Position numbers and translations under genes: made by a program. From a virus (taxonomy: Duplodnaviria > Heunggongvirae > Uroviricota > Caudoviricetes), in IMG/VR virus record IMGVR_UViG_2585427756_000015: 9,667 nucleotides of DNA. One strand, 5' to 3'. The notes beneath the pieces are model-generated. The model was not told where the DNA came from, made no database searches, and saw only the letters and a list, made by a program, of their open reading frames with translations. Positions 5,125 to 5,825 of this stretch are shown in pieces. Position 1 is the stretch's first letter. Each line of letters starts with the position of its first letter.

Positions 5125-5357
5125 AGAAAGCCCCTCCGGAGAGGGGCTAAAGCCGCGTATCTGTATCATCATGCACATGGTGCCGGGTGCCTCCCGGTGA
5201 GTTCAGCCCGGTGCCACTAAACCCGCGTCATTCTCGTTTTGATAATCAGAGATTATACCGTCACCAGTCGCCCCTCCGCTCAGGGGGATTCACCATGCGA
5301 AATTTTTTTAACAAATGCCCAGTCTGACAGGCAACTGTCAACTTACTGAATTGTGAG
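5125..5357. repeat. Copy 1 of a ~220-bp structured repeat (candidate ncRNA element)
   Basis: Shares conserved blocks with copy 2: perfect hairpin AGCCCCTCCGGAGAGGGGCT, ATGGTGCCGGGTGCCTCCCGGTGA.TTCAG, GCCCCTCCGC.CAGGGGGATTCACCATGC, TTTTAACAAA, CAAC.GTCAAC, CTGAATTGTGAG. Variable spacers between the blocks. Confidence 0.6.
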
Positions 5358-5392
5358 CAACATAGCATTTAACGGGGAACCTGTTTTCTGCA

Positions 5393-5422
5393 GTAAAAAG
5401 GCCCACCGGAGCGGATGGGCCT
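5393..5422 (-). terminator. Minus-strand intrinsic terminator between the two repeat copies
   Basis: AGGCCCA-(10-nt loop)-TGGGCCT hairpin (5399-5422) followed on the minus strand by UUUUU (plus A-run 5395-5399). Confidence 0.4.
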
Positions 5423-5611
5423 GGAAGGATAGCGGTCATGTGATGCCGGTTTCCCGGTAACTCAGCACCGGTATCTGAGTCAACGTTTTCTCTACTGGGT
5501 CATTTCCGATACGCCCTGCCTGCTGACAGGCTTTCATCACATCTGAAAATATAGCACCCTGACTGATACTGTAGTACCTAAGGTTCCAGAAACTGTGATG
5601 TATCCGGCACA

Positions 5612-5825
5612 GAAAAGCCCCTCCGGAGAGGGGCTGGAGAGTGGCGCTATGTGCCATTGCATGGTGCCGGGTGCCTCCCGGTGAATTCAGTACCAGCACC
5701 TGAATCCGCGATTATCCCATATACCTACTCGCTGATTGCCCCTCCGCACAGGGGGATTCACCATGCCAGTTTCTTTTAACAAACTCCCCGCAAACCAGAC
5801 AACAGTCAACCGCCTGAATTGTGAG
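5612..5825. repeat. Copy 2 of the ~220-bp structured repeat (candidate ncRNA element)
   Basis: Same conserved blocks as copy 1, including the identical 20-nt perfect hairpin at 5616-5635. On the minus strand the hairpin is followed by UUUUCUGUG. Confidence 0.6.

Follow-up and report, generated by a model that had tools for sequence, protein, structure and literature searches.

Previous studies have placed Hfq-bound sRNA genes in the prophage interval considered here. Tree et al. (2014, PMC4104026) described exactly this site as bearing convergent Hfq-bound sRNA genes and bounded by a 'conserved hypothetical phage ORF', which corresponds to the esterase gene of our locus. Their Hfq-CRAC study, which also described anti-sRNAs, is the source of EcOnc05 and EcOnc27, both of the STnc100 family; EcOnc05 is an Hfq-crosslinked RNA of ~222 nt on Northern blot, its probe matches an element in Sakai prophage Sp4, and its CRAC peak lies on that element (PMC4104026). 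In EDL933, 11 STnc100 copies are transcribed, one of them confirmed by Northern blot (PMC5331693), and RpoD binding has been reported at the STnc100 promoters of Salmonella LT2 (PMC10794520). The related PasD1 and PasD2 are abundant RNAs whose stability was reported as Hfq-dependent by Northern blot; in RNA-seq of an hfq deletion their levels were not reduced (log2 fold change +0.55 and -0.18), and their RIL-seq chimeras form via the 3' ~50 nt, where the seed UGUGAG immediately precedes the terminator (PMC8550237). A common ancestor of PasD and STnc100 has already been proposed (Zhu, Shabalina and Storz 2026 preprint). The effects of sRNA103/EcOnc27 on fimZ and espA stem from overexpression and may be indirect, and no STnc100-proper member is known to have a validated direct target.

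The stretch analysed here (the window) comprises 9,667 nucleotides of a Caudoviricetes virus, IMG/VR record IMGVR_UViG_2585427756_000015. RefSeq annotation of a 100%-identical ML35 locus identifies the 'moron' site of an stx-less lambdoid prophage with the gene order Q, kinase, PP2C phosphatase, ileZ-argN-argO, sRNAs, nanS-p-type esterase, holin, and lysozyme. All three sRNA genes described below share the minus strand with the late operon and are found downstream of both Q and the late promoter, which is also their place in Sakai Sp4 and Sp5. Facing copy 1, in the position that AsxR occupies in the Stx2 phage, is a convergent partner sRNA (Table 1), ~95% identical to the EPEC RIL-seq sRNA candidate E2348C_1409.E2348C_1408.IGR; its terminator (5089-5110 followed by U7) abuts that of copy 1, and a seed-like CCUUGCC lies just 5' of it. 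Between the esterase and holin genes, the PasA probe-derived sequence found 0 matches at ≤3 mismatches.

The first-pass annotation had seen two tandem copies of a structured element with conserved blocks between the tRNA and esterase genes. The two copies are real, and every sequence feature listed for them is present. Positions 5129-5148 and 5616-5635 carry one and the same 20-nt hairpin, AGCCCCTC-TCCG-GAGGGGCT when read on the minus strand; CCGGG-TGCCT-CCCGG lies within a 97%-identical block (5176-5206 and 5660-5690); the CCCCT...AGGGGG hairpin and the flanking CACCATGC fall within an 88-nt repeat (5270-5357 and 5738-5825); and the long-range pair GCATGGTG...CACCATGC is found in both, with a G-U pair at one end in copy 1. 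Aligned to each other, the two units are identical in 78% of columns, the helices being conserved and the spacers variable. On the minus strand both match Rfam STnc100 (RF02076) over its full length, copy 1 with 165.4 bits (5327-5118, E 3.7e-38) and copy 2 with 136.3 bits (5795-5605, E 1.1e-30), above the gathering score of 47 bits and far beyond chance; our own covariance model gave 185.6 and 162 bits. Both repeats are thus members of the known prophage sRNA family STnc100, which includes EcOnc05 and EcOnc27 and is related to PasD. Any Rfam-based annotator would name them so, and because the family is known the two repeats are in themselves an ordinary finding that adds little; what is new is a third, highly diverged, unannotated copy between them.

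This middle element shows no BLAST similarity to copies 1 and 2. It scores 30.1 bits (E 3e-4) on the Rfam STnc100 model, below the gathering score, so we class it as a diverged relative rather than an Rfam-defined STnc100 member; on our own model it scores 36.2 bits (E about 5e-8) over its full length. Nevertheless, every family helix is retained with compensatory changes, namely P1 AUGUGAUG...CAUCACAU, P2 CCUGUC-AGCA-GGCAGG, P3 GACUCAG...CUGAGUU, and P4 CCGG-GAAA-CCGG, followed by the linker GACCGCUAUCCUUCC at 5423-5437 and a terminator (5422-5399 plus U5). An extended -10 sequence, TGCTATATT, ends 6 nt short of A5542, where the closing helix begins, and would act as the promoter of the element. 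The middle element occurs in ~12% of complete E. coli genomes and in E. albertii, and non-EHEC E. coli genomes that carry it number in the hundreds; it has never been annotated and is found only within arrays, flanked by canonical copies. Strains bearing the present array include ML35, VR50, and the type strain DSM 30083/ATCC 11775, in which the middle element is 100% identical.

Table 1. Features of the sRNA array and its surroundings in the window
Feature	Position	Strand	Evidence
SASA-family carbohydrate esterase, nanS-p type	3042-4895	-	RefSeq annotation of identical ML35 locus
Convergent partner sRNA, EcOnc08/21/42 family	4936-5117 (ends by homology)	+	Homology, terminator scan
STnc100 copy 1	5119-5298	-	Rfam RF02076, own model
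Copy 1 upstream module, RNA leader or promoter DNA	5299-5357	-	Alignments
Middle element, diverged third family member	5392-5542	-	Rfam below gathering score, own model, MFE fold, compensatory changes
Putative extended -10 of middle element	5548-5556	-	Invariant in both middle-type variants; upstream sequence diverges
STnc100 copy 2 (EcOnc05 type)	5606-5766	-	Rfam RF02076, own model, identity to Sakai Sp4 element
Copy 2 upstream module, RNA leader or promoter DNA	5767-5825	-	Upstream alignment of all family variants
Intrinsic terminator after tRNA-Arg(TCT)	5832-5856	-	Stem 5856-5839, U run to 5832; terminator scan, sequence
tRNA cluster ileZ(CAT)-argN(TCG)-argO(TCT), before moron site	5871-6120	-	ARAGORN, Rfam, RefSeq annotation

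The structured domain of the family consists of a closing helix, P1, around the hairpins P2, P3, and P4, after which come a single-stranded linker of 15-27 nt, the terminator, and a U tail. In copy 2 the P1 5' strand GCAUGGUG (5766-5759) is followed by P2, a variable region, P3, the invariant hairpin P4, and the P1 3' strand (5666-5659), and then by the linker AAUGGCACAUAGCGCCACUCUCC at 5636-5658, the terminator (5635-5616), and a U tract. Copy 1 has the same scaffold with a longer variable region, the linker UGCAUGAUGAUACAGAUACGCGGCUUU at 5149-5174, and a terminator at 5148-5129 followed by UUCUUAU. In both copies the U tail (UUCUUAU in copy 1, UUUUCUGU in copy 2) is interrupted, which makes it weaker than the tails that Hfq typically binds. 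The Sakai Sp4 element, EcOnc05 by probe match and map position, shows 100% identity to copy 2, and the STnc_100 qPCR primers that have been applied to STEC vesicles match copy 2 exactly.

Covariation supports the five-helix fold. In a set of 25 distinct family sequences, paired cells make up 98.4% of the total and two-sided changes are seen in 17 of the 34 pairs, in an alignment that was fitted to the model and is therefore biased towards structure; none of 500 shuffles reached 17 pairs, and slid controls gave 1-4. The covariation proposed earlier as a check was therefore found, and together with the Rfam matches it bears out the reading of the repeats as structured minus-strand RNA rather than protein. 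Folding of single sequences, also proposed, gave a divided answer: the MFE fold of the middle element is the family architecture (z -2.64), but copies 1 and 2, folded in their short forms, miss the family fold, with modest z-scores (-1.6 and -1.7), and are uninformative, because P2 and the terminator are alike in sequence and mispair. MFE folds also contain an outer helix between leader and linker (GGGGAGU/ACUCUCC in copy 2, UUUGU/ACAGA in copy 1 and EcOnc27), which appears as a 3-bp helix in the Rfam consensus; it cannot gain covariation support, since recombination combines leaders with linkers freely and its leader strand does not vary. A tRNA-like fold was also considered for the four-helix domain and rejected, as neither ARAGORN nor the Rfam tRNA model detects it.

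We consider it most likely that the array consists of three paralogous STnc100/EcOnc05-EcOnc27/PasD sRNA genes in the moron site, which specify Hfq-dependent, trans-acting base-pairing sRNAs. Each unit comprises a promoter-like upstream module, the structured domain, and an intrinsic terminator. By analogy with the homologues, for which transcription, Hfq binding, and target chimeras have been described, each RNA would be made in the lysogen, copy 1 and the middle element presumably included. Hfq would bind the linker, terminator, and U tail, as suggested by EcOnc27, which gives Northern bands of ~235/247 nt and has its CRAC peak over linker and terminator once the coordinates are corrected (PMC4104026). 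The correction is an offset of ~+135 nt between genome versions, checked against AsxR, and with it the peak does not fall upstream of P1. Pairing with mRNAs would then occur in trans via the variable single-stranded parts, that is, the 3' linker and perhaps also, should copies 1 and 2 be made in a long form, the 5' leader, where the putative seeds would lie. Since the scaffold is conserved while the linkers and leaders differ, the three paralogues should have different target sets, and their targets, like their exact 5' ends, are predictions.

The terminators invite a different explanation. A scan of 4850-6700 found 12 terminator-like sites against 1.9 expected, with terminator-like hairpins on all five minus-strand units: from argO to the esterase start they lie at 5856-5839, 5635-5616, 5422-5399, 5148-5129, and 5020-5005. 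The minus-strand terminators noted previously are confirmed, but those thought to precede the two copies belong to other units: the one at 5393-5422 ends the third member (5542-5392), and the other (5856-5839 and its U run) follows tRNA-Arg, as the same hairpin follows argO in Sakai Sp4. Likewise, the proposed independent termination stands, each unit having its own intrinsic terminator, but the family members number three instead of two. A weak -10-like TTAAAT (5833-5828) overlaps the U run of the post-tRNA-Arg terminator and could start a long form of copy 2. Such a stack, with the late promoter region on one side and the lysis genes on the other, could act mainly in cis, keeping Q-independent read-through that originates at pR' and the tRNA genes out of the esterase and lysis genes, with the sRNAs as by-products. 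We regard this as unlikely to be the main role: covariation keeps four helices unrelated to termination, one terminator is enough in 45 of 77 related loci, and the homologous RNAs are stable, abundant, and Hfq-associated. An insulating effect is compatible with the trans-acting sRNA explanation.

The hairpin P4 (CCGGG-AGGCA-CCCGG) shows no two-sided change and is nearly invariant, loop included, in the canonical members, which suggests sequence-specific recognition; moreover, P2 pairs a C-rich strand with a GGAGGGG strand, and strings resembling Shine-Dalgarno and anti-Shine-Dalgarno sequences occur in P2 and the terminator. The structured domain might on these grounds be a protein- or ribosome-binding module instead of a scaffold for base-pairing. 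We judge this improbable, as P4 is absent from PasD and differs in the middle element, Hfq is the sole known partner protein, and the reading is pure inference.

Where the RNAs begin bears on the GU-rich segment that the first-pass annotation had raised as a possible seed or decoy. The upstream module of copy 2 contains CUCACAAUUCAG, the GU-rich segment (5786-5811, 20-45 nt upstream of P1), a -35-like TTGTCT, and an extended -10-like TG-T-TAAAAG (5781-5773) ending 7 nt before G5766; that of copy 1 contains CUCACAAUUCAG, a UGACAG-UUGC-CUGUCA hairpin, a -35-like TTGCCT, and TG-T-TAAAAA (5313-5305), which ends 7 nt before G5298. The Northern sizes of EcOnc05 and EcOnc27 imply by analogy that the GU-rich segment would be part of an RNA leader. 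On the other hand, it could be promoter DNA, given that the mapped 5' end of PasD2 is the first P1 base and that the segment is followed by a -10-like TGTTAAAA, which is conserved; the firm form of this view, promoter DNA only, was dropped in light of the Northern sizes of Tree et al. and because copy 2 and the Sakai Sp4 element are identical. The Rfam STnc100 model begins 29 nt upstream of P1. The 5' boundaries of STnc100-type RNAs disagree between Rfam, Northern sizes, and PasD mapping, and this boundary decides if a GU-rich leader is available for pairing.

The same annotation had speculated about a relation to prophage regulatory or anti-sRNA families; on the anti-sRNA reading, the RNAs would be sponges or decoys that titrate core sRNAs via the GU-rich leader or pyrimidine-rich linkers. 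AsxR and AgvB are indeed found at the same moron site, the copy 2 leader would bear UGUUGU and GGUUUGC if the long form exists, and the Northern sizes favour that form. However, the AgvB (RF02702) and AsxR (RF02703) models gave no match at E≤5 on either strand of 4880-6650, while they scored 88.1 and 40.9 bits in the Sakai positive control, which rules out AgvB/AsxR identity. Known anti-sRNAs are 51-60 nt long, lie on the convergent strand, and have a common 3' module not present in these RNAs; an RNA rich in GU would look like GcvB, not sponge it; and family variants do not conserve the leader sequence. The suspected tie to EHEC prophage regulators therefore holds as to an sRNA family detected in EHEC but not as to anti-sRNAs, and the sponge role is quite improbable. 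No plus-strand terminator follows the CA-rich complement of the segment.

That the repeats encode small proteins is effectively refuted and scarcely credible: short ORFs overlap them, RefSeq places a pseudogene fragment at 5651-5776 (+), an ORF at 5187-5327 (+) has a weak YmjE-like match (E 0.052, 14 bits against a cut-off of 27), and some EDL933 STnc100 copies carry ribosome footprints (PMC5331693), but the plus-strand ORFs of the two copies have no detectable protein similarity, no Pfam family exceeds threshold, a 1-nt indel between the copies breaks the frame, and substitutions track base-pairing, not codons.

Returning to the three paralogous sRNA genes, arrays seem to gain or lose units through recombination inside the terminator hairpins, which are identical, and Sakai Sp4 equals this array without the middle element and copy 1. 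We see about an even chance that the middle element represents an unrecognised third subfamily of the STnc100/PasD scaffold and that the arrays form a modular 'sRNA cassette' system, in which a conserved scaffold carries interchangeable leaders, linkers (seeds), and terminators, and members are gained or lost by recombination between identical terminator hairpins. If so, regulatory repertoires would differ between lysogens. A structurally conserved paralogue that escapes both BLAST and the Rfam threshold is of possible use to researchers of prophage sRNAs.

Compared with the STnc100 genes of EHEC (EcOnc05 in Sp4, EcOnc27/sRNA103 in the Stx2 phage Sp5/933W), the window RNAs belong to the same covariance family, have the same strand relative to the late operon, and occupy the same site between the tRNAs/moron and the esterase. 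However, three members share one spacer here, whereas Sakai Sp4 and Sp5 and E2348/69 PP2 and PP4 have one each, and no stx lies upstream. In the case of PasD1 and PasD2 (EPEC E2348/69, Pearl Mizrahi 2021; homologue EcOnc13), the P1 5' strand GCAUGGUGAAUCC, P2, and P3 are common with these RNAs, as are the position upstream of the esterase or holin and a TTAAAA -10-like element at equal distance from P1; they score 41 and 38 bits on the STnc100 model, and the window RNAs show 44-61% identity to PasD in structural alignment. PasD differs in lacking P4 and in having a longer linker with the seed UGUGAG, which is absent from the linkers of all three window RNAs, a different terminator, a good -35 (TTGACT), and a 5' end that maps to P1. 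The AsxR/AgvB convergent pairs (Tree et al. 2014) have the same layout, an STnc100-type gene against a convergent sRNA with back-to-back terminators in the moron-esterase interval, but the partner here is of the EcOnc08/21/42 family (~182 nt in EPEC, ~271 nt on Northern blot in Sakai), not of the 51-60 nt anti-sRNA family.

A common scaffold with presumably different seeds, borne on a phage in variable copy number, sets this array apart from OmrA/OmrB and PrrF1/PrrF2. Those pairs likewise consist of neighbouring sRNA paralogues that have separate promoters and terminators, with one part conserved and another differing, but they are core-genome genes in which the seed is common and the differences lie elsewhere.

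Direct-repeat analysis of the two copies returned an 88-nt repeat (5270-5357/5738-5825, 80% identity), a 31-nt repeat (5176-5206/5660-5690, 97% identity), and a 22-nt block (5127-5148/5614-5635, 100% identical) with the perfect hairpin inside it; all of the sequence features listed in the first-pass annotation were found in the window. Aligned on the minus strand, the copies agree in 78% of columns; the helices are conserved, and the spacers vary and are rich in indels. An Rfam 15 scan of the window at curated thresholds gave a full-length match to RF02076 ("Gammaproteobacterial sRNA STnc100"; gathering score 47) for each copy, and the only other matches were three tRNAs. 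The earlier reading of the repeats as structured minus-strand RNA is therefore correct, the wider interpretation in the first-pass annotation is supported in part, and the family was already curated; this kind of element is already known. Our additions are modest: a cryptic middle paralogue, recombining arrays, and a 5' boundary on which the evidence conflicts.

Coordinates of the STnc100-type elements, terminator-like hairpins, and convergent gene in the window
Feature	Coordinates	Strand	Basis
Copy 2, RF02076 match	5795-5605	-	Rfam 15 scan; 136.3 bits, E 1.1e-30
Middle element, sub-threshold STnc100 match	5566-5393	-	Permissive Rfam scan; 30.1 bits, E 3e-4
Copy 1, RF02076 match	5327-5118	-	Rfam 15 scan; 165.4 bits, E 3.7e-38
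Terminator-like hairpin	5856-5839	-	Consensus scan
Terminator-like hairpin	5635-5616	-	Consensus scan
Terminator-like hairpin	5422-5399	-	Consensus scan
Terminator-like hairpin	5148-5129	-	Consensus scan
Terminator-like hairpin	5020-5005	-	Consensus scan
Convergent sRNA gene (EcOnc08/21/42 homologue)	~4936-5117	+	Placed by homology

A covariance model trained on the two copies together with Sakai EcOnc27 comprises five helices and 34 base pairs; its helices include the closing helix P1 and the internal hairpins P2, P3, and P4. We fitted 25 distinct family sequences to this model (STnc100 variants, PasD1/PasD2, and the two middle types); in the resulting model-fitted alignment, standard pairs occupy 98.4% of the cells and 17 of the 34 pairs are changed on both sides. 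None of 500 shuffled controls reached the observed pairing and covariation values, and moving the partners by 1-3 columns gave 1-4 both-side-changed pairs versus the 17 observed. Covarying pairs number 4-5 in each of P1, P2, P3, and the terminator, and P4 (CCGGG-AGGCA-CCCGG) is nearly invariant. For both copies, single-sequence MFE prediction recovered the family fold once the upstream leader was added, but not from the short forms, in which P2 mispairs with the terminator owing to their similarity.

Between the copies lies the middle element, and the hairpin at 5393-5422, described earlier as a terminator preceding a copy, is instead the 3' end of its sub-threshold STnc100 match. Our own model gives a full-length match to the element at 36.2 bits (E about 5e-8 in 131 kb). 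Folded alone, the element adopts the family architecture (z = -2.64): the closing helix AUGUGAUG/CAUCACAU surrounds three internal hairpins, one of them CCGG-GAAA-CCGG, with a strong terminator behind a 15-nt linker. Compared with the canonical closing helix GCAUGGUG/CACCAUGC, four of the eight pairs are altered on both sides; aligned by structure, the element is only ~50% identical to the other members, and BLAST found no similarity to them beyond the terminator tail. Two middle-type variants exist, and by our own reading of the alignment their P2 stems carry four differences, with pairing kept in all four, one of which is a double change. A predicted extended -10 (TGCTATATT), 6 nt before the middle-element closing helix, is the same in both variants, and the sequence further upstream diverges. 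Of the 5426 complete E. coli genomes, 673 have the element, and none of the matches listed is annotated there; it is also present in 5 phage records and 117 IMG/VR contigs and, among the species representatives, in E. albertii only.

STnc100 is among the most often annotated sRNAs (PMC9029176), and in EDL933, RNA-seq reads fall on all 11 copies and a Northern blot confirmed one of them (PMC5331693). The Hfq-binding RNA EcOnc27/sRNA103, which overlaps the copy that lies 75 nt downstream of stx2B, raised fimZ and espA transcript levels when overexpressed, an effect that may be indirect (PMC12711010, PMC7873438, PMC5030294). STnc_100 was also found in STEC outer-membrane vesicles (PMC12370729), and the published qPCR primers from that study match copy 2 exactly. 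Common ancestry of STnc100 and the EPEC sRNAs PasD1/PasD2 is proposed in a 2026 Storz laboratory preprint, which also notes the link of these RNAs with esterase genes. Northern blots and RIL-seq validated PasD1/PasD2, for which the proposed seed is UGUGAG, directly 5' of the terminator (PMC8550237). From argO through the copy 2 terminator stem, the window matches the argO-to-esterase spacer of Sakai Sp4 with 100% identity. EcOnc05 is tabulated by Tree et al. as an Sp4 Hfq-CRAC peak with a Northern band of ~222 nt; its probe is complementary to exactly the Sp4 element identical to copy 2, the peak sits on the body of that element, and their Sp4 coordinates agree with the current genome version. 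Judged by the probe match and the map position at Sp4, copy 2 thus corresponds to EcOnc05.

Beyond the copy 2 terminator stem, the Sp4 spacer (positions 1360-1870 of our Sakai Sp4 locus, L088) resumes with what lies after copy 1 in the window; the window therefore equals the Sp4 arrangement with two members added, the middle element and copy 1. The junction falls inside the identical 20-nt hairpin common to both terminators (5129-5148 and 5616-5635), which suggests that homologous recombination between terminator hairpins adds or removes array members. The middle element was never alone in the 80 loci fetched by its core sequence, where the arrays were copy2-M-copy1 (M, middle element) in 43, and S4-M2-copy2 in 29, with a few variants; triple arrays with it also occur in the phage isolates PhiR5_2 and 733R4. 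Esterase-linked loci hold a single copy-2-type element in 45 of 77 cases and a triple array in 21 of 77. The 1.2-kb region is 100% identical in many E. coli chromosomes, including ML35 and VR50, and at least 80% of it is present in 318 of the 5426 complete genomes. By RefSeq annotation, the ML35 counterpart is a lambdoid late region on the minus strand, with no stx gene in it, in the order antiterminator Q, Ser/Thr kinase, PP2C phosphatase, truncated methyltransferase, tRNA-Ile(CAT)/Arg/Arg, sRNA spacer, SASA-family esterase (nanS-p type), holin, and lysozyme. In the window, the Ser/Thr protein kinase and PP2C phosphatase genes occupy 6607-8186 (-) between Q and the tRNA cluster, followed by the truncated DNA methyltransferase pseudogene (~6170-6457).

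The GU-rich segment pointed out in the first-pass annotation (5786-5811) lies 20-45 nt upstream of the first P1 base, G5766, and two lines of evidence on the RNA 5' end disagree. For a short form, the PasD2 RNA-seq 5' end (NC_011601 741157) falls precisely on the G of GCAUGGUG; all family variants, even those whose upstream sequence is unrelated, have T(G/A)TTAAAA placed with TAAAAA at -12 to -7 of the P1 G; and a start at P1 fits EcOnc06 (~177 nt) and EcOnc13 (~187 nt). For a long form, EcOnc05 measures ~222 nt versus ~157 nt from P1 and ~213 nt from a start near A5820-5822, EcOnc27 measures ~235/247 nt versus 172 nt from P1, and the Rfam model begins 29 nt upstream of P1. A candidate upstream -10, TTAAAT (5833-5828), has no good -35, and the long forms could equally be explained by processing of read-through transcripts. 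The GU-rich segment is probably part of a leader in copies 1 and 2, where an internal start may also be used. Leader sequences vary between family variants and recombine freely with the linkers. None of the results marks the segment as a seed or a decoy. Both canonical units start with CUCACAAUUCAG (5353-5358 and 5821-5826, -), containing CUCACA, the reported target motif of the PasD seed; this may well be a coincidence. The motif reads GUCACA in Sakai EcOnc27, and transcripts would contain it only when they begin upstream of the predicted long-form start. The HUS-associated variants after stx2B (T<->C at +90 and a T deletion at +103; Paganini et al. 2025) both fall in the conserved AUUUGUUAAAAAAAUUUC, just 5' of P1, at ~3936-3951 of the Sakai Sp5 locus (L004) by our own count, these positions depending on the Paganini alignment numbering. 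The element hit is a -10/discriminator or leader element, not a piece of the structured body.

It is likely that the array specifies three independently terminated, Hfq-associated, trans-acting base-pairing sRNAs, in which a conserved structured scaffold would present variable single-stranded segments. Hfq-CRAC on EcOnc05 and on EcOnc27, the latter corrected for a ~135-nt offset with AsxR as the reference, maps to the body, linker, and terminator, and PasD chimeras map to the 3' ~50 nt (PMC8550237). The three window linkers differ (UGCAUGAUGAUACAGAUACGCGGCUUU, AAUGGCACAUAGCGCCACUCUCC, and GACCGCUAUCCUUCC); hence, we would expect non-redundant targets, and the pyrimidine-rich strings CUCUCC and CCUUCC could pair with ribosome-binding sites. 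The region 4850-6700 holds 12 terminator-like sites versus 1.9 expected in the consensus scan; action mainly in cis, as a terminator stack, is compatible with trans-acting sRNAs and, as the principal role, unlikely. A function as a protein-binding scaffold is still less probable, and a sponge role slightly less again. Protein coding by the repeats is highly improbable and was rejected: the plus-strand ORFs over the two copies have no common protein similarity, no Pfam family passed its threshold (the best was YmjE-like, E 0.052, 14 bits versus a cut-off of 27), and a 1-nt indel between the copies breaks the frame. The YmjE-like match belongs to a 46-aa ORF at 5187-5327 (+), antisense to copy 1.

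Facing copy 1, 4896-5125 shares ~95% identity with the locus in EPEC that holds the RIL-seq sRNA candidate E2348C_1409.E2348C_1408.IGR, which has the homologues EcOnc08/21/42, a seed complementary to GGCAAGG, and partners including the cfa and dppA leaders. The convergent partner in the window, without RefSeq annotation, contains CCUUGCC as a seed-like string; its strong terminator (5089-5110 plus U7) ends at 5117 and abuts the terminator of copy 1, a copy that ends at ~5119. On the late-operon strand, the hairpin at 5005-5020 (-), CUGCGCAACUGCGCGG followed by a U run, is terminator-like, lies ~110 nt upstream of the esterase start codon and antisense to the plus-strand sRNA body, and is conserved in Sakai Sp4 and Sp5. 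A relation to the anti-sRNA families of EHEC prophages had been raised earlier as speculation; AsxR and AgvB are excluded as the plus-strand partner, since neither gave an Rfam match at E<=5 in 4880-6650 (both strands). Convergent Hfq-bound sRNA genes occupy the same site (downstream of pR', "moron" to conserved ORF) in eight Sakai prophages (Tree et al. 2014, PMC4104026). In the Stx2 phage Sp5 of Sakai, the STnc100 gene (L004 3923-4128, +) faces AsxR (4182-4130, -) with abutting terminators, and the window has the same geometry, with a convergent sRNA facing an STnc100-type gene at the position of AsxR.
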